Positions 35,501-62,311 of a stretch of DNA of 64,000 bases are shown piece by piece. The notes beneath the pieces were generated by a model. It did not search any database and was not told the DNA's origin. It saw only the letters and a list, made by a program, of their open reading frames with translations. Source of the DNA: an uncultured Christensenella sp. (GTDB lineage Bacteria; Bacillota; Clostridia; Christensenellales; Pumilibacteraceae); the NCBI GenBank assembly GCA_910585955.1, contig CAJUGC010000007.1, positions 6,320 to 70,319 on the forward strand, given 5' to 3'. Position numbers and translations under genes: made by a program. Every line of letters starts with the position of its first letter. Position 1 is the stretch's first letter.

Positions 35501-36465
35501 TCGAGGTTGATTATAATAGGACTGTCCGCATTTTCGCCTATGGTAAGATAAGCGTCGATGTCAGTGGGAACAAACGGCTCGAGCGCGGTCTGCGCCTGAG
35601 TGGGAACGCTCTCGTAGTTGTTGAGATCGAGTACGATATCCGTTATACCGGCATATCTGACCTTAACAAAGAACGAACCCGACGCGCTGACGCCGCTTCT
35701 TAAATTTATATTTATCTCTTTAAAGTAAAAATAGTTTACTCCGTCAAAGACCACGTCGTCTATACTGAAATCATCGGGCGGAGAAAAATCTTGACGAGTG
35801 GGAATATTGAATTCGTTGTTTCCGAGAGGCGTGGTATTGACAAAACCGTTGCTCATTACGGAATAAGCCTTGAATTCGGGATCTTTACCGAATACCGCCA
35901 TTGTATCCGTGGCGTTCAAGATCTTATCGTATTTAGCCGTAATTCCCGCAGCATTGCTTTCCTGAATATTATTCAAAGAAAGCGTGCAAGAAAGTCCTTT
36001 ATATGTCGCGTTTATTCCCGTATCCGTAAGTTCGAGCTCGACGCCGTCCGTAGCGCAAGAAATCGTTTCGCTGTTGCCGTCCGCATCCGTAAGCGTCAGA
36101 TTTGTGAGAAGTTTGAGCATTTCCGTGCTCGTATTTGCGGCGTTTTTAACAAATGCAAAATACGAAAAATCGTCCGAGGGCACGGCAAACTCGCAACCGT
36201 CGGACAATAAATATGTATTATAATCGGTTTTCGTAACATTAGAAACTCCATCGAGAGCGTTTGCCTTCAGATAGTACGGAGGATATTCTCCCGCTCTGTC
36301 CGTGTTTACCGAAAGAGCTATGCTTGTCGGATTTTCCACAGTCGCGGCTTCGGCATTTGTAAGCCGCGCAAATTGCGACGTCGCCGTAAAACCGATTGCC
36401 GACATAACCAATGCCAAAACTATGCCGACAAATGCCAAAACACTCTTTTTATGCTCAACTCTCAT
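17515..36465 (-). CDS. Giant (6316 aa) YDG/MBG-type repeat cell-surface protein (putative adhesin) with a signal peptide and a C-terminal TM anchor
   Basis: The ORF runs 18,951 nt without interruption. A GGAGG RBS lies 7 nt upstream. The N-terminus KKSVLAFVGIVLALVMSAIGFTATS...AEAA looks like a signal peptide. The C-terminus is VSVLSTMTVAAGALLVVMLVRRKKLGY. The body is many divergent repeats of about 90-100 aa carrying ..(V/I)YDG.., ..(I/V)YG(D/E).., ..VG(S/T)Y.. and NYx(I/V/L)..G.(L/F)x(I/V) patterns, plus recurrent N(Y/F)xW motifs (NYKW, NYEW, NYIW, NYVW, NYMW and others). Confidence 0.9.
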   Translation of the reverse strand: MRVEHKKSVLAFVGIVLALVMSAIGFTATSQFARLTNAEAATVENPTSIALSVNTDRAGEYPPYYLKANALDGVSNVTKTDYNTYLLSDGCEFAVPSDDFSYFAFVKNAANTSTEMLKLLTNLTLTDADGNSETISCATDGVELELTDTGINATYKGLSCTLSLNNIQESNAAGITAKYDKILNATDTMAVFGKDPEFKAYSVMSNGFVNTTPLGNNEFNIPTRQDFSPPDDFSIDDVVFDGVNYFYFKEININLRSGVSASGSFFVKVRYAGITDIVLDLNNYESVPTQAQTALEPFVPTDIDAYLTIGENADSPIIINLDYDRAPLENGFYRNGLGKYKIYYYEKGSTVPSISGKTDEELLQDETHTGGNELPTYMTSIVGTIRILYVVEANGKDQTNSVVACKDFDVSDIDILPAAIMAPTLNGVTALDWKKFEQSYVKSNGSDIGENLYGGYGAEIPVSLPVGYTDLWGFLLGREVKMTVLRGAETVGEYGYEYNGGNIQNVKIENGVSFAETADGSQYLVAENAGNYTVRFEIVGPDYKWDTAVGASSDTLLSYSVTVNPMKGSATLGIAKGVDEEGAENTVATFNYGSLLKTNGDIGYSIKYQPIDTELAWIFVDYDGTSSSWTSGIGETAGDATETEFEYSFLYYGKSTNGLYDVPASAPTSSVPTTPGTYYAIIKVEAFGNYAEAQSEPVEFIIKRQAIAFSWKYNLSGTPNYKSAPIYNAGKHDPSDYIYIVNESSGEVLASTDWNFYTDDTFATVLTDYQPIVAGKHTLYLKLSEEKSDLYEWSPETVSGIDDGIFEAGDSGAGKATLYFEIEKYVGNDLGVSISGWTYEDNANEPVDSAPTYYKEIKHIFVEKDVYDTAKTAADALSGDDRGFVAKYIITNSLTFTTDAPVNAGDYFVLAYITSEYGENSDDFTSYNYCEAAKGFTVDKKGVVKPTLGMVDFTFDKNAQTVELLNYDGTNMTVSISAALPGNTSVSADSVLGKLTATNADTYTITVKIAAEYFKNHKWDDPSVSGDTFSFTWTIKPYTLKSIGRTLEKESEYSSSKQTVVLSDDANASDEFFDYSLINASVSGNPYINGVLDTNKSFISTSLLSQDANKVWTFGATYAGKYVVELSLNDTNYIWDTNARSYELTFDITPVKLGANNVDWGTEFSYIYDGLEHKPAPLFKELKGSDALTASVSVKNGEEAVARVTEVGNYVMTLDDMSGANLTGILDGMDYNIAYGYVMPETAENVTYHAFAITSALLLAPTFTDDVVEYNGSAFDIIDYIEDYAKNYIIGDVAQIKFTAYKNGTEAVGGNEPQDTLSLTDVVWQSIASDKATIGSYTVVVTLRDPENYKWKAKSDDSVGTDNAPVSLTFKITPALVDFVLSQDASEEKPYVVGYDGVEHDFIDIIQNYVGIENHITVSGGKHTDVNRAAFGDAVNSYEVTVGLDDKTKYNYVWADGSSDPSQGYNIADKTYFMRVDPAALEVDWADLEQTYSGSYLSPTASVSNHFEVEDNKSLVLSLEYLEGKDNTGTSGGLANVTDAGYYTAYVVGLTGEGAENYKIDFSSAAAVKPKANFTIIRAAVVKPTIETALGAGNSLGEYDKSEHDVVIKNYDSARMSYAANAHDVRGKDVGSITVPHSADDSNKKITVSVKRAGDYFVTFTLSDGKNYCFEDGSTAPDAENDNTVTLDFKLERKAVNAPTLSRSTTREAGKIFVPVLYSTYGETVADKKYSEAKDAVSSVDFDLGGDWVVSANIVYGNVTSDAVGIYDITLTLSLLTDDESIYDYAFVKEEVDENTMSTLGIEDTLLDFETVLKVQYRITGSVFELEFTIQSADGTAVAEWTYGDDVTGFRFHTDSVIPSDYVPAQREAVYYVYNEDDKSYAAYTGETVSTGSDDITNKADFFAALPKSAGRYRAAVIYRTGDSTGNGVYEYEQRYIVEFAIEKKEVAFDWQSSEVNGVTYDAVENMFAAIYDGNSHMGFAAVTNSQYGDTLGLQIGLAGDAMDNPVDVKLDADKNATYYDIEIKSITGEAAANYVLPTSGLQSKLTIDKRSVTLNAGDASHIFGSKITSDGANLNIDGANLVRITDGDFVASDNISLDSFAVTAKKSDGAYVLYNTSVGNYKTVITPRAELTNYDITYVDGVFDVEQKVIEVQWNSDKFVYDGTDQFANYNGKFVWYEDVDANKVALESVDISGQDTIFKRAGRYDFAVTAVSDANYRLAVSGESEYDSLTRSIEMQKRTVNIAAKDVTTIYGDVVGSYPLGWVYVEGTDKFVEDGGIEIESGNSAPSVLSFGFASTAVGTSSVGSYETYLVYNGGNFTGQITLDDFTVNVEKGAHTIEKYELKETDIVWNESSFVYNANDRTTQTLGLATYADRGDGSTHELLLAAVSESGAEVEFKNAGDYTLAVSSLQSDSTANLKLPDGYDLAWKSADKYTIAKREVEISVEDSESVYGEKIGSEKRVWNYVSTVKFCDDDENAGIDGFTSDINIRVAGGEGVDDERTDVGFCDLELFHGNDKFIATGGKAEFANYSVVFTNGEITVRPRELKIDVKNLEHIYGSDEVFDTPLVSRLAEISASQIVGGGLASFDTIVDVLTATTPANPDGRVRAEAKNGYAVTLSLNTDAKGDNYIVKFKPVSAAGDTLAEVILNSDVLNESAQKTSEVAAYYNIKTASFEDIQVVSYSESGIAYDGAVHAAISSKSVSYYGTTKSEARKTATENVSDNNLGWAYALSTETVAPDASAFASEIPEVLNAGTYYLYYRISADNHETEIGYVTVTVTKKEVVLSVSANIYYGENTPDLQYFNYDFDGLGENESITFASASGGKVSFKAVRAIGGKELPLEGWIDGTLDISTDYIAGDSVGTYRVKVENLGFAAGNYVFNIAPEEQNIVSVEKLPVIITVGDIEDSYWFNGAGSGRDLNVRAENGFTLTTGVKDIAGNSITDVYAGDKSVGTHEYEKLFFIKSGAFVYDANGNRTDMNGVGTYTVTYERRELGGVNGNYDLSFTLGSHKVVPADIELTLKGYNADYDENEHDLIVSTASDGVLASPADKERPSGASILDFKYALIKVSEGDGKIEDYAPSDENGYDLDSVPKLIDAGTYYVYYMISGENHNTVTGSLTAEIAKVYNGWKTDKEYAIAKSYWSYGSYDLSANEETKPEANFKRVPSGGETLPEISLFGGEDFATLVGEYSMSGEHWSWLTDTISGETYNNGQLLGAGVYKVVVSVDGNDNFYDLESEYEITVNKAELSLAPKAATITYGDALDFDSLKFEIGSFKNGEDFSSEIRNEVLRLEAGYGNDESFTHYAAGFENGSVSNTYYIRFVGGVQSILEGMEVLKNYAPVLETATLTVNKKPLSIHINNAENKYNFNISSGEKEDPAAIDTDLTSAENKDAAGYYYDGENRPFGAEIPVHIVTDAFIYDESGNLAVSTKDVGKYPIYAEENKYAANYDISYEGSYSGGTKGTFEIKQAELNINVSVWHSIDGSETEASVAASGREYVGTYSGYAWEFKAECVNADFDDVTFRTVYRSALSGIDYTGVAPKNAGTYYLRFIANNNNNYTFAGSADDYVMKVNPLSVAVDMRLYEDASGTEALTGSVEYKQSPYAVKLSSVPEAVPDPDREDFENFINISYRKDNESVSSPLNAGSYLATATVTELAYGNYVLDETSRNFQFTITKKKINVVTTIGDTSAVYDGNDITFSLAGCSSLTDPNRENGYVMTYEIEYADNLGSAPSKFGDGHFAAGTFGFGAVNAGSYAVKVKLEFTDDYEWIGFAGDTVTLNYTITQKSLYVKASNEKIEYGDRFDGSAGSTHNLLYKGLVQGHIGQQGTQGNEIPSAGIIGVGKEIDISSVTYAAVDSSANAHTTASAAGEIFTIIPNSDEFVSNNYNIVVNHSSFGSGTLTVVGRKITVEIKDASRTYTGSKHDEWIQSELEASLASGGNTGKYIILKSGDLTGNEGNDTVADLGITLKIGGGNETDCSLKGFAISADYTNKNYDIAFTGSWSTGTDGTFTIEKKTLEVFVGVSGDEGKAHSVVYGDALIYNATYSGFVPQGNVGETGNLSALSWLFLSGSISYKTVLTAGSGAAEYTIGESHVGDEYKVTIDDITLQNYKFDINEGTIAILPRTIGASLTAKTVTFAADNAHLPVVQNAPVAFTNTVFGFASEIFAYSYDGVLKDGTAVSSLTDVSRAGDYTVTLNLITNENGEYDYLFAGSVASYTFADRYEIAKQVVRLEWTTQTFEFAEGRADENTIPNYDGVILDRSGIMLGGAVDMEIDGGIRIGEGGKGLVLPVIKSGNYSIVLSLKPDYANDYILVNRDSPQSQTVTLSFNTFVSEINLTISMSGWTYGDTAVEPKLKATEAGGKDFALDENATIAISYALLSEETIASLDSKNLWNMSLTQNDINSLDGTRTYGVSPVNAGAYMVRATGSVDYTYESSDTGTTETKRIPVQAWFAFRIAKDKIDVPLFDEEGADKVYGGSLLSATVSGYREGIMSMTYAEAFELKAGTITLHTSSAGAHELTVSLINDTNYEWNEFTPSEHTKLENGNVIITWTVTAGTNTVSGLTVQTGIYYGETYDSTGVSALFGGVITYMYASRDTDSTDPSMVPEGLDWKVGFPKGVGKYWIGATSQGGEDDYASETAYAACEIVKAVLAVRPKDTALTYGEAFTIEGNYELVGAMYDDLPVLGGLPSATVSNENGNYFVGADVGEYAIRISGLSGVAVSGELANNYSVTFDGSETATLTVNKKSITVIINSQEATYDGTSDHALDESMGEKNGWYVLNNALVTNETTQALDTLGIALSLPDNCMNVGNYPISYKFTSVGKNDNYDITVTPSGRFVINSLTLTVTEATAGGTLVYNRGNAPTGNLSLTLKYVYDGSEQTLTVDSATASTTILNENETFVLRYSGVSNNGATYSNSPSLPLFAGSGYTVGLVSGTNSGNITLIGASAAFAVEKYTLDGALIQNAASLKNVLKVAYTGHEYSIDGDVANRVVTLGSALYPLPSGVDKLFTVTASDKEVSAGTYGFTLTLENAVFHNYKWASVEVASREFTFEIEKAANVVRWTGANPGELSWVYDGTLHEGGLGVTADFGQETKIYLVSSTENGTYEEFDSVRHTRKGTYYVKVRIPETNDYTEATTSEYKVCDISARRINLVFAGDDEYIGGVYGDTSMSARDYDFTDAVTGLADFDDLKAGISVSIVYVGSSFGGVASDGLMPTLAGRYKVRISLSGESAHNFELANATSGYVEGNYIVARQAVYGDRIVVESFDFDGFAHTAEDSVKKNEFYGVKYELDGEAIENINASHYSFVLKLIDSDNFYWFTHTEDQTAETINKFRSFSYHIKTVDVVNAELDKLSFVKNGVKVEVSESDLNSETMLWTYKDVISDVTATVVVTVRTESGREFELTNRTYGTFDSFIELQYYSENYAQWGRLLPEDAGIHKIRVNIERTVNINAPTSTSEYDFGVEKFALETPTLTDTGTGWIYTGNRLTAYMDGSFDNDVMRVSFSDVSTEGGRFTVGAVKAGSHEITVDIRSSHTRNYMWKDGSSSLVIVWKIEKARNGLKHFDDISKIYGEEYASEAIADFGQVQFAYYDKDGKLLAGAPRASGDYFIEAYVDGSDDYYGVAASRVKLHISKKEIVVLPTSGSVVYGNEYTHDDRGFLVEDGSFEYGDGYAVISGAPVYYTAYRAGNAVGSMQTIAISGVGTLEAENYTFKAGENLASLTVTKRPITILIGDQSASYNGEILLDETKWTIHESTPKFGSDIIAITLSIEGGLPTSVGRYRIIGEAVSGGNNSNENYDITFRDGTYVVNALIITVTGIDVPSGLVFGETAGAKATFTVEGVDGALESGAFVGRVEILVVYYDDTTGITYGSMPASAGTYRAMIELAPASDGNNNQNYRLGGTLSKVFTIARRAIDETSIENSAKAAGLLDSVYSGFLRVPSADAIARIEGFAPIDGMYTVSCAGGINVGEYSLLLTFTSDFVRNYKWLHSEGSVASLTYTITKNMDNTVSAKFENADSATFEYDGNSIEKRLESRLVVNALLGGDNVFFEYASVSGDTLGEYSRAVPSAVGDYRVRAVVRDTTDYSGAVSTALRFEITPRRITADFAECGGMYMSAIVPASAIFAYADESFSDDRLLKTAEHSVYYYGTSYDGTFSHTLEDGITVVPVKAGAYKAAIVLQNENFVFVSQGKETNTIETDFIVARKRLELPAQDGGKYEVDDTKYTLTPSGFDETVMTISGNSANKNGDYTAIVSLKDKANYEWANGTSDDFEMSWTLKKDAPVDFIATVSVLSTMTVAAGALLVVMLVRRKKLGY

Positions 36466-55104: not shown

Positions 55105-55635
55105 CTACTTACAGAACTTATCGAGATAGTTTGCACGAGCCTTGGAAATGATCCCGAGCGCGGCGTTCCTGTCCATGACTTCGTTTACCGCAGTCTCTTT
55201 GTTTTCGAGTTGCTTATAGACGGTGAAGAAGTGGCGCATTTCGTCGAAGATGTGTTTTGGAAGTTCTTTAAGATCCTTGTATCCGTTGTACGACGGATCG
55301 GCAAACGGAATCGCGATGATCTTTTCGTCGTTTGCGCCGTTGTCCATCATGGTAATTACCCCTATCGGATAAACTCTGACGAGAGACAGCGGCTCGAGGC
55401 TTTCCGAGCAAAGCACGAGCACGTCGAGCGGATCTCCGTCGTCGGCAAGCGTACGCGGAATAAAGCCGTAATTGGACGGATAGTGCGTGGACGTATAAAG
55501 CACTCTGTCGAGTATGAGTAGTCCCGTAGCCTTATCCAGCTCGTATTTTTGTTTACTGTTCTTACTTATTTCTATGACGGCTATAAAGTCGTCGTCGTTT
55601 ATTCTTTTATGATCTATGTCGTGCCAGATATTCAT
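55105..55635 (-). CDS. ppa: Inorganic pyrophosphatase (family I)
   Basis: 176 aa. IEISKNSKQKYELDK, YPSNYGFIPRTLADDGDPLDVLVL and DEKIIA are the family I PPase blocks. Confidence 0.95.
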   Translation of the reverse strand: MNIWHDIDHKRINDDDFIAVIEISKNSKQKYELDKATGLLILDRVLYTSTHYPSNYGFIPRTLADDGDPLDVLVLCSESLEPLSLVRVYPIGVITMMDNGANDEKIIAIPFADPSYNGYKDLKELPKHIFDEMRHFFTVYKQLENKETAVNEVMDRNAALGIISKARANYLDKFCK

Positions 55636-55705
55636 ATGCTCTCCTTGAATATTAAAAACCGCCGCTCCGCAAACTATCGATATAAATATTAACGGAGGGA
55701 ATCAC

Positions 55706-55819
55706 ATGATCGACGTAAGAAAGATATTCGAAAGCGAAACCGACCCGGACGGTTGGTACACGGGCGCGCCCGAAGGCGGCGAATACGAAGAACCCGTCCA
55801 GGACGCAGACGACCTTTAA
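55706..55819 (+). CDS. Possible 37-aa acidic small protein (below the cutoff of the ORF track)
   Basis: Sequence: MIDVRKIFESETDPDGWYTGAPEGGEYEEPVQDADDL. The ATG at 55706 is preceded by GGAGGG with a 6-nt spacer. It fills most of the otherwise empty gap between ppa and the protease gene. Confidence 0.4.
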   Translation: MIDVRKIFESETDPDGWYTGAPEGGEYEEPVQDADDL

Positions 55820-55828
55820 AACTTAATC

Positions 55829-56605
55829 TTAACCGAAATACGGAAGATATTTGCGGATAAAATCGATCACTATATCCGACGGTATCTCGTATTTCATGCC
55901 GTCGGCGTGCTCGTTTTCACTGAGCATTGCCGCCGCAACATGTACGCCTATAACTTTGCCGCGCTCGTTGAAAACAGGTCCGCCCGAATTGCCGCCGTTA
56001 GTCGCACAGTCTGTCATGATGCGAGGACGTCCTTCAACAGTACGTCTGCGATCGCTTACTATGCCGCGAGTTATGCAGGTGCCGTGACCGAGCGAATTGC
56101 CTATGACGAACACCGGCTCACCCGTGCGGACGTTTGAAAAGTCCTCGAACTCGAGCACGGTCGCTTTTTCGGGCACGCTTGCGAGCTTAAGGAGCGCAAG
56201 GTCGTCTCCGCGATAGTATTCTCCGCTTCCCGCCACGCTGCCCACGCCTATAACTCGAGCCGTGACGCGTTGACCCGCGATATTTACGTTGACGCTTCCG
56301 ACGGCTTCACTGCCGTTCAGAACAACATGAGCGTTCGTAATCCCGTAGCCGTCGCGCGTAATCAAAAGTCCGCTTCCCGAAAACACGCCTCTGTTGCTCT
56401 TCCAGCTTATCTCGAGCACGCCGCCGACCGTACTTTCGAAAATGTCTACTCCGTTCTGGTTATTGACGCTTGCCTGCGTGCGCGAACTTACCGCCGCCGC
56501 AACCTCGAAATCTTCGGCGGAAAACGCGGCTCCGCAAAAGTTACACTTATAATTGCCGCCTCCGAGGTCTTTACAGCTGCCGCCGCAGTTCTTGCAAGTT
56601 TTCAT
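55829..56605 (-). CDS. Trypsin-like (S1/HtrA-type) serine protease with an N-terminal zinc ribbon; no signal peptide, no PDZ domain
   Basis: 258 aa. The N-terminus MKTCKNCGGSC...YKCNFCG has a CxxC...CxxC arrangement. The catalytic triad context is TNAHVV (His), DDLALLKL (Asp) and GGNSGGPVF (Ser). An AAGGAG RBS is present. The gene starts 23 nt downstream of the AAA ATPase gene. Confidence 0.85.
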   Translation of the reverse strand: MKTCKNCGGSCKDLGGGNYKCNFCGAAFSAEDFEVAAAVSSRTQASVNNQNGVDIFESTVGGVLEISWKSNRGVFSGSGLLITRDGYGITNAHVVLNGSEAVGSVNVNIAGQRVTARVIGVGSVAGSGEYYRGDDLALLKLASVPEKATVLEFEDFSNVRTGEPVFVIGNSLGHGTCITRGIVSDRRRTVEGRPRIMTDCATNGGNSGGPVFNERGKVIGVHVAAAMLSENEHADGMKYEIPSDIVIDFIRKYLPYFG

Positions 56606-56628
56606 ACAGAATCTCCTTTAAAGTATTG

Positions 56629-58728
56629 TTATTCGTTCGAGCCCTTCCACTCGAGCAATTTTTCTATGTCCTCGCTTTGCACCGAAGACGTGACTTTTTC
56701 GAATGCCGCGACTACGTCGTCGTTGCAAAGTTTCTTTTCTCCCGTTTTTATCGCACGCAAAGCGGATTGCTCCTCCGCTTTATCGAGAAGCGCTGTTATG
56801 TCCGAACCGTTAAAACCGTTTGACTTTTCGACTGCCGCCGCAACGTCTATGTCGTCGGATACTGCCACTATGCCCTTTTCGCGTATCTTTTCGATTCGAC
56901 GCATAAGCATATATTCGCGCGCGGGCGCGTCGGGCAATCCCACATACACGCGCGTACCGAATCGTCCCGGGCGAACGAAAGCGCTGTCTACATCCCACGG
57001 CTTGTTTGTAGCCGCTATAAGGAAGAGAATGTTGTCCTTCTTTTTGCCGTACGATTCTATGCCCTGAAGCTGGGACAGAAGCTCGCTTCGAAGCTGTTTT
57101 GCGTATTGCGATTTCGTAGACTTGGGGGAAATCGAATCCATTTCGTCAAAGTAAATGACGGCGCACGGAAATTCACGAGCCTGTGCAAACAGCGCACGCA
57201 CGGCTTTTTCCGTATTGCCCACGCCTTGATTGAGAAGATCGGACGGCTTTACGGAGCAGAACTTTGCGCCTATCTCGTTGGCTATCGCCGCCGCTATCAT
57301 GGTTTTGCCCGTGCCCGGAGGTCCGTACAGCAATAGTCCTCCACCGCTCTTTCTGACGTAACCCTCGAATACCTCCGGGTTTTGCAGAGGCAACAGAACT
57401 TTTACGCGCACGACTTCCTTTACGTCGTCCAGCCCTGCAATATCGTCGAAATTTATTACGGGCAGACTGTCCCAATCGAATTTGTATTCGCTTGCCGGTC
57501 CCGTGCCTTCTTCGAGCACTTTCTCCTCGGGCGTAAGCGCTTTGTCATCTTTAGGCGCCGGCTTAGGCGGCTCGGACTTAGGCTTAGGCGGCTCGTTTCT
57601 TTGAGAAGTCTCTTTGGACGCGACTGGCTCGCAATAGCGTACCTCGGACGGAAGGTCGTCTATCGTAATGGTAGTCATAGTATCGTTGTCGGGGTCGGAA
57701 AGTCTCGCCACTCTTCCCGACTGACGCGTGACGATGTTCTCGAAAAGGTTGCGCACGTCTCTTCCGTTTCCGAAATTCTCGTTCCTGTTCTCATAGAGAC
57801 TGCGGAAATAGTCCTTGAGCGCAAAGCGAGCGTCCGCATCCACCGCATAATGATTTTTCTTGCAAGTCACATCGAATATTCCGTATAACTCGCTTCCGTT
57901 GTAATCGTCGAAGTTTATGAACGTCTTAAAACGCGAGCGAAGTCCCGGATTCGACTTTATGAACTTCTCCATGGGCTTGTCGTAACCCGCGACTATGACG
58001 ACGAGATTAGAGCGTTTGTCCTCCATTTCCTTTAAAAGCGTATCTATAGCTTCCTGCCCGAAATCGTTTGCACCGCCGTTTGCAAGCGCATACGCTTCGT
58101 CTATGAACAGCACGCCGCCGTACGCCTTTTTGAGTACGTCTTTTGTCTTGACCGCAGTCTGTCCCACATAGCCCGCAACAAGCCCGCTTCTGTCCACCTC
58201 GACGAGCTGACCCTCCGACAGTATGCCGAGCGCACAATAAATCTGCGCCATAAGTCTGGCGACCGTCGTCTTACCCGTGCCCGGATTGCCCGTAAATACG
58301 AGATGATACGACATATCGGGGACGGGAAGTCCTCTGTCTTTACGCATTTTAAAGACTTTTATTTGGTCTATCCAATCGCCGACTTTGCTTTTGACGGTAG
58401 AAAGGCCGACGAGAGCATTGAGACGAGAGAGCGCTTCCTCAAGCGAAATTTTTTCGTTTTTCACCGCAGTCACGGAGCTTGAAGTCTCTTCCTCTTGTAC
58501 CGCCTTTTTCTCTACGCCTATGCTTTCGGCTTTCTCGATAAGACTCTTTGCACGGTTGAAACGCGCCTTTTGCAGCTCGCCTTCGCTTGCCTTTGCCATT
58601 TTCAGCATTTGCTCTGCGGCAAGCATGAAATAGCGTTTTGCCAAGAACTTATCGCCTTTCTCGAGACAAGATTTTGCCTTGCCGAAATACAAGTCGAAAG
58701 TCTCGCTAAGCATACTCAGATTATCCAT
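56629..58728 (-). CDS. Tandem AAA+ ATPase: MIT-like N-terminal helical domain, SpoVK/CbbX-type AAA domain, Pro/Lys-rich linker, Vps4/FtsH-type AAA domain
   Basis: 699 aa. The N-terminus KAKSCLEKGDKFLAKRYFMLAAEQMLKMAKASEGELQKARFNRAKSLIEKAESI parallels the Vps4 MIT layout (...Y..A.e.fl......k....RAK...yLdRAEkL). D1 has LEEALSRLNALVGLSTVK and HLVFTGNPGTGKTTVARLMA, then VLFIDEAY. D2 has FDDIAGLDDVKEVVRVKVLLPLQNPEVF, LLLYGPPGTGKTMIAAAIANE, VIYFDEMD and ATNKPWDVDSAFVRPGRF. Confidence 0.85.
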   Translation of the reverse strand: MDNLSMLSETFDLYFGKAKSCLEKGDKFLAKRYFMLAAEQMLKMAKASEGELQKARFNRAKSLIEKAESIGVEKKAVQEEETSSSVTAVKNEKISLEEALSRLNALVGLSTVKSKVGDWIDQIKVFKMRKDRGLPVPDMSYHLVFTGNPGTGKTTVARLMAQIYCALGILSEGQLVEVDRSGLVAGYVGQTAVKTKDVLKKAYGGVLFIDEAYALANGGANDFGQEAIDTLLKEMEDKRSNLVVIVAGYDKPMEKFIKSNPGLRSRFKTFINFDDYNGSELYGIFDVTCKKNHYAVDADARFALKDYFRSLYENRNENFGNGRDVRNLFENIVTRQSGRVARLSDPDNDTMTTITIDDLPSEVRYCEPVASKETSQRNEPPKPKSEPPKPAPKDDKALTPEEKVLEEGTGPASEYKFDWDSLPVINFDDIAGLDDVKEVVRVKVLLPLQNPEVFEGYVRKSGGGLLLYGPPGTGKTMIAAAIANEIGAKFCSVKPSDLLNQGVGNTEKAVRALFAQAREFPCAVIYFDEMDSISPKSTKSQYAKQLRSELLSQLQGIESYGKKKDNILFLIAATNKPWDVDSAFVRPGRFGTRVYVGLPDAPAREYMLMRRIEKIREKGIVAVSDDIDVAAAVEKSNGFNGSDITALLDKAEEQSALRAIKTGEKKLCNDDVVAAFEKVTSSVQSEDIEKLLEWKGSNE

Positions 58729-58804
58729 TCAATACCTCTCTGATTTTTTTTCGGATCGGAAATCGCCGCCGAACTTCAAATAAGCCGACGGCGATACAAC
58801 GCTC

Positions 58805-59377
58805 TTATATGCCCGAATCTATTTTCTTTTTCAGGGCTTCGAGTTCCTTGTCTATCATGCTTTCGGTCATGCCGTCCGCCGCCGCGGTATTCGTGAACAA
58901 CGCCTCGATCTCGGCGTTTTCGCTCTCGCTCGACATCGTGCCCGTCGAAAAAGCGGACTGTGTGTCGTCCATGAAATTCTCGAGCTGTTCCGTCTGCATT
59001 TCCATACCCATCATGGCTTCGTTGAACTGCTTTTGAACCTTTAAGAAATCTTTTTCTTTCGTGATTTTCATCATATCTTTGGAAAGCGAACTCATGCCGT
59101 CCAAAAACTGCACTGTCATCTGCGACATATCCTTCATCTGCGAGGTTATTTCGAAATTAAGCTTCATCTCATACACTCGCTTTTGCTGCGTGAGCGTCAT
59201 TTTAAGTCCGGACAGCGCAAGATTATACTGAGCGGTCAAGCCCTTTTGCTTCGCCGTCTTGCCGGCTTCTATGTAAACTTTTTTTTGCTCCTCGAGCTTT
59301 TGTATCTGCTTGTTCATGGTGTTGATCGTCTTATTGATCAACATCTTCTTTTCAAGTTCTTTTTTCGTATTTGCCAT
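58805..59377 (-). CDS. ESCRT-III-superfamily protein, CHMP2/3 (Vps2/Vps24)-like, with a C-terminal MIM1-like motif
   Basis: 190 aa, all-helical. It lines up by eye with CHMP3: IQKLEEQKKVYIEAGKTAKQKG against IRDIQREEEKVKRSVKDAAKKGQ, and LSKDMMKITKEKDFLKVQKQFNEAMMGMEMQTEQLENFMDD against STEVMKAMQSL..IQATMRELSKEMMKAGIIEEMLEDTFES. An acidic linker follows. The C-terminus ESMIDKELEALKKKI fits (D/E)xxLxxRLxxL(K/R), apart from Glu at the Arg position and Ile at the first Leu. Confidence 0.6.
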   Translation of the reverse strand: MANTKKELEKKMLINKTINTMNKQIQKLEEQKKVYIEAGKTAKQKGLTAQYNLALSGLKMTLTQQKRVYEMKLNFEITSQMKDMSQMTVQFLDGMSSLSKDMMKITKEKDFLKVQKQFNEAMMGMEMQTEQLENFMDDTQSAFSTGTMSSESENAEIEALFTNTAAADGMTESMIDKELEALKKKIDSGI

Positions 59378-59518
59378 TATCTAAATCATACTCCATTTTA
59401 ATAAAATCGGTTGAAGCGCTCTTTCACGCAAGTCTTGTCACCTCTTTCGTGGCTTGGAATCGACATAGCACGCAAGACGGACAAAAGCGGCACGCCGCCG
59501 AAACGTGATAAATGCGTT

Positions 59519-60112
59519 TCAGATATCGGTTGCGTCCGCCTTTACCTTAGGCGTTTCGGAGAACATCTCCTCCTCGTCCGCGACCTGTTCCTCTTCCTCG
59601 AACATTGCGAGAAGCGCGTTGTCTTGCTCGTTCATGCCGTAAATAGTCTGATTTACGTCGTACGCCTCTTCTATGCCTTTAAACGTCTCGTCCGCAGACG
59701 TCAGCACATCCTCTGCGGCGACTCTCGTATTCAGCGTCTTATTGAGGAACTTCGCAAGTCCTTTCTGATCGGCAAGGAGATTCCCGAGCGACGCTTTCGA
59801 CGTGTTTTTGAAAAACTTGTTGTCGTCTATGGCGTTTTTGAGTTTTTGAAGCATTTGGATATTGTACATTATGTACATATCGCGTTGCACGCTCTGTTCA
59901 CGTTCGGCTTTTAAGGCATTTATCTTTTTAGCGTACAAAAGTTTAAGACTTTTATCCTTTTCGGCTTTGCCCTTAGCCATCATGTCGTCAATCTGCTTCT
60001 GACCGGAAAGAAGCCCGTCCTCGATTTCTTTGGACTGCTGTTCGAGCTCGCAAATAGCCTTTACGACTTCTTCACGCGTCAACTTATCGTATTTGCTTTT
60101 AAAAGGCCACAT
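59519..60112 (-). CDS. ESCRT-III-superfamily protein, Snf7/CHMP4-like
   Basis: 197 aa. It starts MWPFKSK (yeast Snf7 starts MWSSLFGW). EEVVKAICELEQQSKEIE...GKAEKDKSLKLLYAKKINALKAEREQ follows the Snf7 alpha1-alpha2 hairpin pattern (AI..L.....L.kk......a....gnk..A...LkkKK..E.q). The C-terminal tail is acidic (EEEEQVADEEE). Confidence 0.55.
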   Translation of the reverse strand: MWPFKSKYDKLTREEVVKAICELEQQSKEIEDGLLSGQKQIDDMMAKGKAEKDKSLKLLYAKKINALKAEREQSVQRDMYIMYNIQMLQKLKNAIDDNKFFKNTSKASLGNLLADQKGLAKFLNKTLNTRVAAEDVLTSADETFKGIEEAYDVNQTIYGMNEQDNALLAMFEEEEQVADEEEMFSETPKVKADATDI

Positions 60113-60123
60113 AATTCCTCCGC

Positions 60124-60450
60124 CTATATCTTAGCGTTTCTGTCTGCTAACGTGAGCTTTATCTGCGTCAACAGATTTTCGGCCTTCTTGGTAGTCTCGC
60201 CGTCGCCTTTCGTGAGAGCTATACGCATATCGCCTATAAGGTCTCTGATTTTCTTATCGCAAGACTGGACTTCTTTCGTCTCGGTTGCTATAAGATACTT
60301 TAGCTTTTCTTGAAGCTCTTTGAGCTGATCTGTCAAATATTCGTTACCGTCCGCAAGAACCAAAAGAGCTTCGATCGCCTTATTGTTCTGCTCGACGAGT
60401 TCCTTGTCTTCGCGCGTCTTTTCCGACGCTTTCTTTTTAAAGAAAAACAT
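60124..60450 (-). CDS. Small (108 aa) all-helical protein of unknown function within the ESCRT-III-like operon
   Basis: An AAGGAG RBS lies 7 nt upstream. The gene sits 12 nt after the SPFH gene and 11 nt before the Snf7-like gene. It is charged and helical (KELVEQNNKAIEALLVLADGNEYLTDQLKELQEKLKYL...). Confidence 0.65.
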   Translation of the reverse strand: MFFFKKKASEKTREDKELVEQNNKAIEALLVLADGNEYLTDQLKELQEKLKYLIATETKEVQSCDKKIRDLIGDMRIALTKGDGETTKKAENLLTQIKLTLADRNAKI

Positions 60451-60462
60451 ATTTTCGCTCCT

Positions 60463-61521
60463 TTACTTTAATTTGTTTCCGCAGGTTGCGCAGAACATTG
60501 CGTCGGCTTCGTTGTTGCTCCCGCACTTGGGGCAAGCGGTCTTTTCTTTCACGAGCCTGTTGCCGCAATTAGGACAGAATATAGCGGCCGCAGTATAGGG
60601 CTTTCCGCAATTCGAGCAAAAAAGCGACGCGCCCGACGGTATGCCTGCCGCACCGGCGCCCACACCGACGACCGGCGCATGACCTATGACTTTCAAAACG
60701 TCGTAATACGCGTTCTTGTCCTGAAGCTCGAGTTGACGCAAATACTTATCGCGCTCCCATTGCTTGTCGTCGAGACGTTCGATCTCCGCAAGATATTCTT
60801 TAAGCTTCTTTTCTCGTTCTTCCTTGAGTCGCTTTTCGGCAGCTGCGTTTTCCACAGCCGCTTTGTCGCTCGCGTCTATTCCCACCCACTCGATTATGAA
60901 GTCGGTGAGACCAACGCCCCAACTCTTTTCAAATTTAGGCGAAAGTATGCCGCCGACTGTTATACCGATGTCCTTTTTATGCGCGTCGAACTGATCGTAT
61001 GTAAGCTTTCTTTCGGCAACGGCTTTCAGAAATGCGTCCGAAAACTCGTTTACCACTTCAGCCGAAAAGCGGGTTTGGAAATCATCCTTGTCGAACTCGC
61101 GGCGAACGCCTACTACTTTACGGAAAAACTGTTCGGGATTTGCTATCGTCACACCGAACTGACCGCGCGCACCGATGTTGACAACATGGTTGCTCGCTTC
61201 ATCCCTGTAGGTAAAACGTTGCGGCGTGCCCCAGAATACGATGAGACTGCAATCTTTGGGCATATAGATTACGTCAACCGAAAAGCCTTTCTTCCAAGCT
61301 TTTATTTCCTTACGATCGTCAAACACGTCGTAAGCTCCGCTCTTGTAAAAACGCGCGTCTCCGCCGCCCTTTATTATATATGCGTTGTGCGTATAGGGCA
61401 CTTCTATCATCGCGTGTTTGTCTCTTATCTCATCCGCCACGCGAACAAAGAGCACGCTGTTATCGTTTATGTCGGCATTGCAATGATTCTGCTCGAACTT
61501 GACAATCTGCGGTTTTCCCAT
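60463..61521 (-). CDS. SPFH-superfamily protein of the YdjI ('virion core protein-like', COG4260) type with a C-terminal double zinc ribbon
   Basis: 352 aa. The N-terminal 230 aa (…YIIKGGGDARFYKSGAYDV…VFWGTPQRFTYRD…VNIGARGQFGVTIANPEQFFRKVVG…WGVGLTDFIIEWVGIDAS) resemble YdjI-type SPFH domains. A coiled coil follows (KRLKEEREKKLKEYLAEIERL). The C-terminus is CSNCG..CPNCG...CPKCG..CATCG, four CxxC pairs. Confidence 0.7.
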   Translation of the reverse strand: MGKPQIVKFEQNHCNADINDNSVLFVRVADEIRDKHAMIEVPYTHNAYIIKGGGDARFYKSGAYDVFDDRKEIKAWKKGFSVDVIYMPKDCSLIVFWGTPQRFTYRDEASNHVVNIGARGQFGVTIANPEQFFRKVVGVRREFDKDDFQTRFSAEVVNEFSDAFLKAVAERKLTYDQFDAHKKDIGITVGGILSPKFEKSWGVGLTDFIIEWVGIDASDKAAVENAAAEKRLKEEREKKLKEYLAEIERLDDKQWERDKYLRQLELQDKNAYYDVLKVIGHAPVVGVGAGAAGIPSGASLFCSNCGKPYTAAAIFCPNCGNRLVKEKTACPKCGSNNEADAMFCATCGNKLK

Positions 61522-61589
61522 AAATATAATCTCCTTAAAGGTTGTTTACAATTACTATACGATATAGCATAATTTTTACTGTTACTAAC

Positions 61590-61618
61590 ATTATAATAGA
61601 TTTTTCGGAAATAGTCAA
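61590..61618 (-). promoter_or_regulatory. Sigma-70-type promoter of the SPFH / ESCRT-III-like / AAA / protease operon
   Basis: On the minus strand: TTGACT (61618-61613), a 17-nt spacer, then TATAAT (61595-61590), about 70 nt upstream of the SPFH ATG. Confidence 0.5.
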
Positions 61619-61873
61619 GAACGTAGAGATTAGAAGTAGATTAAAAAGGGAAAAATTGTTCCACTAAAACGATCGTCTTTTTTTCGCTTTCATTGAATAA
61701 ATCAAACTGTTTTGACCGAATTGCCCACGCTTACCTGTTTGCCTTTTCTGTTTACGCCGTCGGGACGAAATGCGCCGTCTTAATGAATATAAGCAAAAAC
61801 ACGTTTAGCAAAAACGACGAAACGAAAAGCGCCTGAATTCAATCAAGCGCTTTTATCATAACGATTTCGGAAA

Positions 61874-62311
61874 TTATAAATAGTGTTTCATCTCGTCGAG
61901 ATTCTTTTGTTCGATACATTTCAGTCTATAAGCGAGATTCACCGCGTCGTCATCGCAACTTTCGCAGTTTTTAAGCTGTTTCGTCACGTCGATTATTCCC
62001 ATTGTACTACCTTGCACTACCATCTCCGCAATGTGCTCGTTCGACTTATCCATTAGCATTTTCACGTTTATCATCGCACGGGCGCATATTCCCGTAAACT
62101 TGTCATCGGAAGGCTGTTCGCCTAATATCGCGAGTTTGTCCTTTGCCTGACGCTCGATATGGCGATATTCGGCAACTTGAGATTCCAAAGTCGCCTTAAG
62201 CCTTTCGTCTTTTACGTCGGAAAGAACGGTTTCGAGATTGTCCGCTCCCATTTTGGCATTTTTGCCTAAGTACTTTAAAAGTTGCGTATTCTTTTCTTTG
62301 TCGCCGTTCAT
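61874..62311 (-). CDS. Hypothetical helical protein (possible four-helix bundle)
   Basis: I place the start at MNGDKEKNTQLLKYLGKNAKMG (ATG 62309-62311, GAGGAG 8 nt upstream). 145 aa, helical. No recognised catalytic motif. Confidence 0.6.
   Translation of the reverse strand: MNGDKEKNTQLLKYLGKNAKMGADNLETVLSDVKDERLKATLESQVAEYRHIERQAKDKLAILGEQPSDDKFTGICARAMINVKMLMDKSNEHIAEMVVQGSTMGIIDVTKQLKNCESCDDDAVNLAYRLKCIEQKNLDEMKHYL

Follow-up and report, generated by a model that had tools for sequence, protein, structure and literature searches.

The 64,000-nucleotide window analysed here, a stretch of contig CAJUGC010000007.1 from an uncultured Christensenella sp. (Pumilibacteraceae, Christensenellales, Clostridia), carries an operon of six genes, g1 to g6, which encode a YdjI-type SPFH protein (g1), a small helical protein (g2), a probable, divergent ESCRT-III-superfamily protein (g3), a predicted ESCRT-III protein of the Snf7/CHMP type (g4), an ATPase with two AAA domains (g5) and a zinc-ribbon trypsin-like protease (g6). 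We propose that this operon encodes an equivalent, in bacteria, of the ESCRT-III/Vps4 machine for membrane remodelling, placed on a chassis resembling that of PspA-YdjGHI, and assign to this reading a probability of roughly 0.6. The observation itself is real, conserved and apparently undescribed; its function we infer from sequence comparisons and predicted structures. [quoted passage not shown]

The g4 protein resembles Snf7/CHMP-type ESCRT-III

As a single sequence, g4 matches Pfam Snf7 (PF03357) with an expectation value (E) of 0.027 and 14.6 bits, compared with a cut-off of 27.3 bits, and its top match in the PDB is CHMP2A, at E 0.24. Shallow profiles (A1 and A2, built from homologues of at least 70% identity, with an effective number of sequences of 1.6) gave no PDB match and no similarity between g3 and g4, and were replaced by deeper ones. 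Searched exhaustively with HMMER, 1.84 billion cluster representatives yielded 364 relatives of g4, and the family profile A3 was constructed from 84 representatives. With this profile human CHMP2A (7zcg_B) is found in the PDB at E 7.6e-6, in an alignment that is colinear from the N-terminus onwards (positions 8-142 versus 5-142). Vps24 is matched at E 0.24, while no PspA or Vipp1 chain is found at E <= 10. Moreover, 13 of the 84 family members match Pfam Snf7 individually, with a best E of 1.4e-9, and PspA_IM30 is absent among the 25 Pfam families listed for the 84 relatives.

The AlphaFold2 (AF2) model of g4, which has a mean predicted local distance difference test score (pLDDT) of 57, contains five helices, comprising residues 2-45, 48-105, 108-145, 152-162 and 170-187. 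In a Foldseek search with this model 18 of the top 19 matches are ESCRT-III-superfamily structures, with weak E values of 0.015-0.4 and sequence identities of about 16-20%; the top matches are CHMP1B, CHMP2A, CHMP3 and Asgard ESCRT-IIIB. Because of the CHMP2A profile match, the Snf7 matches and the Foldseek results, g4 is treated here as an ESCRT-III protein of the Snf7/CHMP type, and its predicted affiliation is not with the PspA type. The sequence-only reading had described this 190-residue protein as CHMP2/3-like; CHMP2A is the best match of its family among solved structures, and the protein is placed in the Snf7/CHMP family rather than in an unrelated coiled-coil family.

Conservation and genomic distribution of the locus

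A scan of one genome per GTDB species with a 20-sequence g4 alignment identified g4 relatives on 135 contigs, the best 80 of which were inspected (loci L001-L080, all from species-representative genomes); more distant variants are denoted L081-L085, L087 and L089. Within the 80 loci, profile hidden Markov models (HMMs) detect g4 in all 80, g3 in 76, g2 in 71, g1 in 70 and the ATPase in 71 (77 by tblastn). The genes follow the order SPFH - g2 - (g2b) - g3 - g4 - [zinc ribbon-TPR-TIR] - ATPase - [zinc-ribbon protease] - [large zinc-ribbon/TIR/leucine-rich-repeat protein], where g2b denotes an extra small gene described below. The neighbourhood test that the sequence-only reading had put forward is thereby answered in its favour, with the same order in 80 species-representative contigs. 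Of the three refuting conditions which that reading had named, it withstands one in full and two in part. In most of the 80 loci and in five distant variants, the gene directly downstream of a g4-type gene encodes an AAA ATPase (~345-400 or ~700 residues); in about a dozen loci a zinc-ribbon-TIR gene is located between the two. Wherever the ATPase was found, it belongs to the same gene cluster as g4.

The loci are labelled mostly as metagenome-assembled genomes of Clostridia, Clostridiales and Christensenellaceae, with a few from Candidatus Coproplasma, Caccovivens and Stercoripulliclostridium and some from Lachnospiraceae; L025 is labelled Acidiphilium, and the labels that were looked up fall in Bacillota. 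L001, a mouse-gut contig of an 'uncultured Christensenellaceae bacterium', is 99% identical to the window over g4 and evidently represents the same species. The flanking regions are partly conserved, with an ABC-transporter gene downstream of the cluster in many loci. Searches of 50,697 phage records, of 72,556 plasmids and of IMG/VR detected no g4 relative, and a mobile-element origin was rejected on this basis; the locus is chromosomal.

In the distant variants with a stand-alone g4 relative (L081, L089) the gene is followed directly by an AAA ATPase of 388-397 residues, often together with a trypsin gene. Other distant g4 relatives are fused at their C-terminus either to a RuvB-like AAA domain, a winged helix and a NERD/TnsA-like nuclease, or to FtsK/SpoIIIE (proteins P0289, P0293, P0298, P0306, P0322, P0342, P0354, P0355 and P0369). 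The loci of such fusions (L082-L085) also contain Band_7_1 proteins, additional g4-type paralogues, an AAA ATPase of ~370-390 residues and trypsin, TIR or leucine-rich-repeat genes, and the named members of these variants are metagenome-assembled genomes of Clostridiales or Bacillota. The domain composition of the fusions suggests DNA motors or nucleases that are targeted to an ESCRT-III-like polymer. In three variants a 344-residue protein lacking a Pfam match recurs beside Band_7_1 (L082:12350-13384, L085:11270-12304, L087:3942-4976); it matches none of the family HMMs from the 80 loci and may be a variant-specific component.

The C-terminal helix of g4 and the N-terminal domain of the ATPase

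The last helix of g4 contains, at residues 172-184, the sequence ESMIDKELEALKK. Its core, I-D-K-E-[LM]-E-E-[LVI]-[KR]-K-K, is kept in the tails listed from 70 of the 80 loci, and residues I175, E178 and L182 are invariant in alignment A1. The consensus of the MIM1 motif is (D/E)xxLxxRLxxL(K/R). At the level of the pattern, the g4 tail shows the hydrophobic spacing and terminal basic residues of MIM1, with a glutamate replacing the consensus arginine. The helix can thus be described, at this level, as a MIM1-like motif and a candidate binding site for MIT domains, in line with the sequence-only reading, which had noticed such a motif at the end of the protein.

The N-terminal domain of the ATPase is the only part of this protein that is retained in all three of the architectures found at orthologous loci (see below). 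Three predicted helices align across these forms, with Gly/Asn and Ser-x-Gly/Pro turns between them. Its constancy while the motor changes is the behaviour expected of a substrate-recognition module. The N-terminus of the window protein itself has no Pfam MIT match, but MIT is the commonest Pfam match among 27 relatives of the domain (6 of 27, best E 7.5e-4, below threshold), and one full-length orthologue matches MIT at E 0.0094. In a search of the PDB, the profile of the domain aligns over its full length with the MIT domain of a chitin synthase (2mpk) at a marginal E of 0.18; a genuine Vps4 MIT domain matches the same structure at only E 0.042. A comparison by hhalign with a four-sequence MIT alignment, in which only yeast Vps4 is a verified sequence, is in register and gives a probability of 57% and a score of 26.7, compared with a maximum of 24.4 for decoys. 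The NCBIfam CdvC model does not match the isolated domain. Taken together, these matches are weakly suggestive of a MIT domain. The MIT-like N-terminus postulated by the sequence-only reading is not contradicted by these results, but a match above threshold was obtained in none of the tests.

Where helix 3 of the Vps4 MIT domain has the sequence 'RAEQL', the N-terminal domain of the ATPase has 'RA[KR]xL'. In Vps4 residue E68 contacts the arginine of MIM1. The replacement of this arginine by glutamate in g4, together with the change from 'RAEQL' to 'RA[KR]xL', may by analogy represent a swapped salt bridge, which is offered as a lead only.

Motor domains and architectures of the ATPase

The g5 protein consists of a ~75-residue N-terminal helical region, a SpoVK-type AAA domain (D1), a linker rich in Pro, Lys and Glu, and an AAA domain of the classical clade (D2). 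D1 matches NCBIfam SpoVK (TIGR02881) at E 2.4e-89, with residues 102-359 aligned to positions 4-261 of 261, and includes a Pfam AAA_lid_6 domain at residues 299-359. It contains the Walker A motif GNPGTGKT, the Walker B motif LFIDEA and the pore loop GYVGQT. D2 (residues 417-694) matches the NCBIfam models of CDC48, PAN, CdvC and FtsH at E 1e-48 to 1e-55, as well as Pfam AAA and AAA_lid_3, with a weak match to Vps4_C (E 0.012).

Three architectures of the ATPase occur. In L041 and L043-L080 the N-terminal domain is combined with one classical AAA domain in a protein of ~375 residues (up to ~510 with C-terminal extensions), and this short form is present in about half of the 80 syntenic loci. 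In the clade of the window the N-terminal domain is followed by the SpoVK-type D1 and the classical D2 (~700 residues), and in L021, L036, L038 and L039 by D1 only (about 370-440 residues). In addition, single-AAA ATPases of 343-397 residues follow the g4-type genes in the distant variants L081, L082, L085, L087 and L089. D1 is absent from the short orthologues. Their alignment with the NCBIfam CdvC model runs from one end to the other (e.g., residues 6-369 of the L043 protein correspond to model positions 4-366 of 370, with an E of 1e-64 and 218 bits), and several of them pass the Pfam cut-off for Vps4_C. The pore loop of yeast Vps4 is SKWMGESEK; that of the one classical AAA domain in the short orthologues is SKWVGESEK. 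In the long forms the corresponding D2 loop is NQGVGNTEK or HQGAGQSEK, which lacks an aromatic residue, while D1 supplies GYVGQT and the Walker A and B motifs are retained in both domains. Presence of the SpoVK-type domain goes along, in every case, with loss of the classical domain's aromatic pore loop.

According to this comparison of sequences, the 699-residue ATPase of the window is predicted to be a derived form, in which a SpoVK-type domain was inserted and the aromatic pore loop of D2 was lost. In our model the single-AAA ATPase with a KWVGESEK pore loop would be the ancestral form. The degenerate D2 pore loop where D1 is present and the existence of forms with only the N-terminal domain and D1 indicate that the motor was supplemented, and in some lineages replaced; it looks like a motor-domain replacement caught in progress. 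A single classical AAA domain with an aromatic pore loop 1 (KW[MV]GE), as expected of a Vps4/CdvC ATPase, is present in the short orthologues with their SKWVGESEK loop; the window protein, in which the sequence-only reading had seen a Vps4-like ATPase, departs from this with its two AAA domains.

The g3 protein is probably a divergent paralogue of g4

The g3 protein has a conserved N-terminal motif, MWPFKSKY, and a C-terminal motif, DDxLLAMFE. When the g3 family (74 sequences) is compared with the g4 family by hhalign, a colinear alignment over the full length, with 158 columns, is obtained, with E 8.8e-5, a probability of 60% and a score of 35.4. None of 62 decoys reached this score: reversed ones scored 12, and the maximum of 60 block-shuffled ones was 27.6. 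The AF2 model of g3 (pLDDT 61, rising to 76-89 over the hairpin) consists of a hairpin of 38 and 44 residues followed by three to four shorter helices. Foldseek matches of this model are weak (E > 0.1), and ESCRT-III structures are mixed among them with bMERB and BAR folds. The profile-profile comparison indicates that g3 is probably a divergent paralogue of g4 within the ESCRT-III superfamily. A recurrent match of g3 to BBE was rejected as a short chance match.

Organization of the operon

The positions of the six genes and of their main features are given in Table 1. The genes are co-directional, with intergenic gaps from g1 to g6 of 12, 11, 141, 76 and 23 nt, and all open reading frames and spacings described in the sequence-only reading were reproduced. 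The site TTGACT-17-TATAAT, which it had described as the promoter, was found as well: 11 of 12 positions agree with the consensus, and among the promoter-like sites within 55500-62000 it ranks first, although such sites as a class are not enriched (5 found versus 6.1 expected). Each gene is also preceded, as had been claimed, by a purine-rich Shine-Dalgarno-like element (AAGGAG, AAGGAG, GGAGG, GGAG, GAGAGG and AAGGAG for g1 to g6, respectively); that of g4 is weaker and lies ~15 nt upstream of the start. It is the gene order conserved across relatives, and not the promoter and Shine-Dalgarno motifs, that establishes the operon beyond chance.

The g3-g4 spacer of 141 nt is longer than in most relatives, where it measures 4-60 nt. 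It contains weak terminator-like hairpins directly after the g3 stop codon, but its predicted fold is no better than that of shuffled sequences (z -0.47) and it has no Rfam match. The window has a G+C content of 45-53%, and no tRNA or Rfam match was found anywhere in it. Elsewhere in the window, the segment 42001-44000 shows a local rise in G+C to 0.58, compared with 0.45-0.52 in other parts, and coincides with minus-strand open reading frames of 458 and 586 residues. A single uninterrupted open reading frame of 6316 residues extends over almost 19 kb at positions 17515-36465 of the minus strand.

Table 1. Genes and sequence features of the operon; positions refer to the 64,000-nucleotide window.
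Feature	Position	Strand	Description
g1	60463-61521	minus	352 aa, ATG start; soluble SPFH protein of YdjI type (Band_7_1), then a coiled coil; two zinc ribbons at the C-terminus
g2	60124-60450	minus	108 aa, ATG start; helical protein, family without assignment
g3	59519-60112	minus	197 aa, ATG start; helical, probable divergent ESCRT-III-superfamily paralogue
g3-g4 spacer	59378-59518	minus	141 nt
g4	58805-59377	minus	190 aa, ATG start; predicted Snf7/CHMP-type ESCRT-III
g4 MIM1-like C-terminal helix	58826-58864	minus	residues 172-184, ESMIDKELEALKK
g5	56629-58728	minus	699 aa, ATG start; ATPase with two AAA domains
g5 N-terminal domain	58504-58728	minus	residues 1-75; three predicted helices, MIT-like
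g5 D1	57643-58431	minus	SpoVK/CbbX/EccA-type AAA and AAA_lid_6
g5 D2	56632-57468	minus	classical-clade AAA (CDC48-D2, Vps4, PAN, FtsH type), degenerate pore loop 1
g6	55829-56605	minus	258 aa, ATG start; zinc ribbon and trypsin-like serine protease
Promoter-like site TTGACT-17-TATAAT	61590-61618	minus	sigma-70-type consensus match only; 69 nt upstream of g1 start

The SPFH protein, the small helical protein and the accessory proteins

The g1 protein matches Pfam Band_7_1 over residues 25-226 (E 2.7e-15, 57 bits compared with a cut-off of 24). Its C-terminal residues 301-348 match DZR, Zn_ribbon_3 and Zn_Ribbon_1, and these zinc ribbons are the only part of g1 that was matched in the PDB. No transmembrane-like segment is present in g1 (maximum KD19 1.48). 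Its description in the sequence-only reading as a YdjI-type SPFH protein with a double zinc ribbon fits these features. For g2 no significant match was obtained in Pfam, NCBIfam or PADLOC. In 39 of the 71 loci with a g2-family member the protein has an N-terminal, transmembrane-like hydrophobic 19-mer (e.g., L004:6953-7384, L041:4067-4468, L056:6530-6973); the hydrophobic segment is missing from the g2 of the window because this copy matches positions 20-126 of the family HMM only. In many divergent loci a second small gene, g2b, which encodes a TPR-like protein of ~119 residues, is located between g2 and g3.

The g6 protein matches Pfam Trypsin_2 over residues 77-221 (E 1.8e-26) and the NCBIfam Do family with its protease domain only (E 1.8e-32), corresponding to an HtrA-type protease lacking PDZ domains. 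The motifs containing the catalytic H, D and S residues are intact (TNAHVV, DDLALL and GNSGGP). The N-terminus forms a CxxCG-x13-CxxCG zinc ribbon, and neither a signal sequence nor a transmembrane segment is present. The g6 protein is thus predicted to be a cytoplasmic trypsin-fold protease. The ribbon and the trypsin-like fold agree with what the sequence-only reading had proposed, which had counted the protease among the components of the module; with a presence in 24 of the 80 loci it is an accessory gene only.

Large proteins with an N-terminal zinc ribbon, TPRs and a TIR domain occur in 59 of the 80 loci, one or two per locus, and some contain BspA-type leucine-rich repeats. Their genes are located between g4 and the ATPase gene or just downstream (e.g., L018:8667-12032, L048:8584-12147, L043:3392-7061, L004:11519-15955, L056:9754-13521), and TIR_2 is matched above the Pfam cut-off. 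No TIR gene is present in the 64-kb window. A CxxCG-x(8-14)-CxxCG ribbon stands at the start of the protease, of the TIR proteins and of the large F5 proteins alike, and g1 ends in two such ribbons. The zinc ribbons common to these proteins may mediate a shared mode of docking.

Proposed mechanism and alternative explanations

The comparisons above show the families to which g1, g4, g6 and the AAA domains belong, the conserved gene order and the constancy of the ATPase N-terminal domain and of the g4 tail motif; polymerisation, contact between domain and tail, disassembly, the part played by the zinc ribbons and the function in the cell are inferred. In the mechanism that we propose, the SPFH protein g1, helped by g2, would form a membrane-associated platform that marks a membrane site, and g4 would polymerise together with g3 on the cytoplasmic face of the membrane. 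The MIM1-like tail of g4 would be bound by the three-helix N-terminal domain of the ATPase, which would thus be recruited to the polymer. As a hexamer, the ATPase would then thread and extract subunits, leading to turnover of the polymer; in the ancestral form this would be carried out by the one classical AAA domain with its KWVGESEK pore loop. In the lineage of the window D1 would probably do the threading, because it carries the only canonical pore loop, while D2, with its Walker A and B motifs retained, would probably contribute to assembly of the hexamer and to hydrolysis of ATP. Exchangeable clients or effectors, namely the zinc-ribbon protease and the TIR proteins of relatives, would dock via the N-terminal zinc ribbon that they have in common; by analogy with the proteasomal degradation of CdvB in Sulfolobus, the protease might degrade extracted subunits. 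Candidate cellular roles are membrane repair, vesicle formation, late division and a damage-triggered response. A more far-reaching form of this proposal is possible but on the doubtful side: the locus would be a genuine bacterial ESCRT-III/Vps4 machine, with a Snf7-type polymer and a MIM-recognising AAA disassemblase placed on an SPFH platform, which docks zinc-ribbon-tagged TIR or protease effectors and, in the fusions, DNA motors and nucleases. It would then connect immunity or the handling of DNA with membrane remodelling or abscission, in the manner of eukaryotic ESCRTs, and it may have been acquired from, or be shared with, gut methanogens that have SPFH-zinc-ribbon ESCRT loci.

Several observations weigh against the ESCRT-III/Vps4 reading. 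The MIT identity of the N-terminal domain remains below threshold in every test. The ATPase scores far below all NCBIfam equivalog cut-offs: with the CdvC model the window protein reaches 174.5 bits and the short orthologues 207-227 bits, compared with a cut-off of 650. The AAA domain scores slightly higher with CDC48/p97 D2 than with CdvC, and p97 D2 is also its nearest solved structure (213 bits for that domain alone). The Vps4_C match was rejected as a discriminating feature, since the same C-terminal helix aligns with p97 D2. For these two reasons membership of Vps4 proper is not established; the ATPase is Vps4-like in architecture and context, and this likeness may be convergent rather than a sign of orthology. 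Accordingly, the assignment of the second AAA domain to a Vps4/FtsH type, as made in the sequence-only reading, holds for the classical clade, whereas the scores are closer to CDC48/p97 D2 than to Vps4/CdvC; in the window protein, moreover, the Walker A and B motifs of D2 are intact, and its pore loop 1, NQGVGNTEK, has lost the aromatic residue. For g3, a 36-sequence family profile gave no relevant match in Pfam or the PDB, and an hhalign comparison with yeast Snf7 and human CHMP4B scored 15, below the decoys. The B-type label of g3 was dropped because of this score, and with it the 'Snf7/CHMP4-like' label given to the 197-residue protein in the sequence-only reading; the colinear match to the g4 family is the only result that backs its ESCRT-III ancestry. 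The AF2 models of g4 and g3 are of low confidence (pLDDT 57 and 61, respectively) and derive from shallow alignments, and every organism-labelled match is a metagenome-assembled genome or an uncultured isolate. Finally, the TIR proteins, proteases and nuclease fusions in relatives point to a role in conflict, which is possibly the primary one.

Such a role forms the basis of an alternative explanation, which we consider unlikely: that the locus is primarily an anti-phage or abortive-infection system, in which the polymer and ATPase act as sensor, scaffold or regulator of toxic effectors. The effectors would comprise the TIR domain with an NADase or signalling function, the protease of trypsin type and, among the fusions, the NERD/TnsA-like nuclease and the RuvB or FtsK motors. 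The explanation is compatible with an ESCRT-like mechanism, from which it differs in purpose, and the two may be complementary. It is favoured by the zinc-ribbon-TPR-TIR genes, some with leucine-rich repeats, in or beside the operon in 59 of 80 loci, by the variable presence of the protease (24 of 80) and by the fusion of g4-type domains to RuvB-like AAA domains with NERD/TnsA-like nucleases and to FtsK/SpoIIIE; defence systems typically show turnover of accessory genes about an unchanging core. Against it stands the conserved order of the core, with an ABC-transporter gene downstream in many loci, which has a vertical more than an island-like appearance; nor did the searched phages, plasmids and viral contigs contain a copy, and the window operon has no TIR gene within 64 kb. 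PADLOC reports IetA and TRIP13-type matches for the ATPase and RT-protease matches for g6, which would favour it, but the former reflect generic similarity among classical AAA domains; PADLOC has no match for g1 or g3 and only a chance-level one for g4 (E 0.0043). Membership of the IetAS system was rejected, since the NCBIfam IteA model gives 120 bits compared with a cut-off of 510 and the PADLOC matches are generic AAA and protease matches only.

A function in membrane-protein quality control, similar to HflK/C-FtsH or stomatin-NfeD, would have the SPFH protein caging an unfoldase that feeds the protease, with the helical proteins as adaptors or regulators. The pairing of SPFH proteins with AAA proteases is recurrent (HflK/C-FtsH, prohibitin-m-AAA), D2 matches FtsH and PAN at E ~1e-48, the protease gene starts 23 nt after the ATPase gene, and trypsin genes are also present in the distant variants L081 and L082. 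However, the protease is missing in 56 of the 80 loci, in which it is evidently dispensable, while g3 and g4 are nearly universal. For this reason the explanation fits poorly and is improbable; moreover, g4 is of the Snf7 type by its profile matches and has a conserved MIM1-like tail, and the ATPase has neither a fused protease domain nor a transmembrane anchor. The most sceptical explanation, a coincidental cluster of coiled coils and a generic AAA ATPase whose likeness to ESCRT is an artefact of composition, can draw on the weak single-sequence matches of g4 (Snf7 E 0.027, CHMP2A E 0.24), on the shallow profiles that matched nothing and on the tendency of coiled coils to match spuriously, with block-shuffled decoys reaching hhalign scores of 24-28. 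It is effectively refuted by the colinear, N-terminus-anchored CHMP2A match of the deep profile, by the 13 members that match Pfam Snf7 independently, by the g3-g4 score of 35 compared with 12 for reversed decoys, and by a gene order shared by 80 species-level genomes and extending to more distant variants.

Should the ESCRT-III/Vps4 reading be correct, the coupling of ESCRT-III to an ATPase would extend to the Bacteria, and a compact system of ~190 plus ~375 residues, expressible in E. coli, would become available for the mechanics of polymer and disassemblase. The SPFH-ESCRT-III links of B. subtilis and of methanogens would join in one picture, the ATPases would offer a natural experiment in the replacement of a motor domain behind a constant substrate-recognition domain, and effectors of the TIR, protease or nuclease kind might prove to be linked to ESCRT-like polymers, a connection unexplored so far. 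Relatives of g4 occur in at least 135 species-level genomes, and the operon is kept in the 80 of these that were inspected. Since the carriers are abundant uncultured gut Clostridia, the system could also matter for how vesicles are produced, or phages resisted, in the gut microbiome.

Comparison with known systems

According to a 2025 review (Low and colleagues), a Vps4-like ATPase 'appears absent in bacteria', and the regulation of bacterial ESCRT-III-like polymers is left open there; Liu et al. (2021) distinguish an archaeo-eukaryotic branch with Snf7, CHMP and CdvB from a bacterial branch with PspA and Vipp1. The pairing of ESCRT-III with an ATPase of Vps4 architecture, as seen here, is a combination that current reviews place outside bacteria. 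A full-text literature search, which covered few subscription-journal papers, gave no description of this operon type, consistent with the sequence-only reading, to which no such module was familiar.

One of the closest known systems is the pspA-ydjGHI operon of B. subtilis, in which a soluble Band_7_1-type SPFH-zinc-finger protein is likewise encoded beside an ESCRT-III-superfamily gene and small membrane proteins (PMC8581546). YdjI, an SPFH protein that is soluble and has its zinc finger at the C-terminus, depends on membrane partners and brings PspA to the membrane, and YdjG starts, as read from a primer sequence, with MIISYKCPNC, a CxxC zinc-ribbon-like sequence (PMC8581546) that resembles the N-termini of g6 and the TIR proteins. 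In contrast to this operon, the presumed polymer here is of the Snf7/CHMP type, with g3 as a probable second paralogue, and neither g3, g4 nor their families match PspA_IM30. The dedicated ATPase with its N-terminal domain has no equivalent in the B. subtilis operon, and the g2 of the window lacks a transmembrane-like segment.

The closest published description is that of Ravi et al. (2024), who described a dyad of PspA and a two-AAA ATPase in Clostridium sp. BNL1100, the N-terminal AAA domain of which was called inactive, as well as occasional divergent Snf7 proteins with a transmembrane anchor and some bacteria with MIT-Vps4 ATPases in which a TPR-6TM protein replaces snf7 (PMC11237479). The dyad (AEY64320/AEY64321) shares with the present operon an ESCRT-III-superfamily gene and a two-AAA ATPase in Clostridia. 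As described, the partner in those systems is PspA or a transmembrane-anchored divergent Snf7 protein. D1 of the window ATPase, unlike their N-terminal AAA domain, has intact Walker A and B motifs and a canonical pore loop. A combination of SPFH with two Snf7-type genes and with TIR or protease genes is absent from the contexts found in that paper or its supplement (PMC11237479).

The archaeal ESCRT-III/Vps4 systems (CdvB/CdvC of the TACK group and their euryarchaeal counterparts) show a similar arrangement, in which Snf7-type genes adjoin the gene of a ~375-residue single-AAA ATPase with N-terminal helices and a C-terminal helix, and their ESCRT-III proteins have a C-terminal motif suited to MIT binding, as g4 has at the level of the pattern. 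In crenarchaeal CdvB this motif is the proline-rich MIM2, in contrast to the MIM1-like motif of g4. Scored with the CdvC model, the ATPase here reaches 175-227 bits, the cut-off being 650, and CDC48 D2 is the closer match of its AAA domain; the window protein has, in addition, the extra SpoVK-type domain and the degenerate D2 pore loop. Unlike the archaeal systems, the present one is found in a bacterial host (Bacillota, Clostridia), shows no CdvA, ESCRT-II winged-helix or adaptin-appendage proteins and includes TIR, protease and leucine-rich-repeat accessory genes. The encoding of the ATPase beside the ESCRT-III genes corresponds to criterion 2 of Makarova et al. (2024), and the Meth_adaptin ESCRT loci of methanogens reported by these authors also encode an SPFH protein that has a coiled coil as well as a zinc ribbon, the same architecture as that of g1 (PMC11188069).

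Compared with the eukaryotic machinery, the sequence identity of g4 is about 16-20%, the arginine of MIM1 is a glutamate, and no ESCRT-0, ESCRT-I or ESCRT-II components are present. The likeness is to the A-type ESCRT-III proteins (CHMP2A, CHMP3/Vps24, CHMP1B) with their VPS4 partner: the g4 family aligns with residues 5-142 of CHMP2A, its helices appear similar in length and order in the low-confidence model (pLDDT 57), and its C-terminal helix shows the spacing of MIM1.

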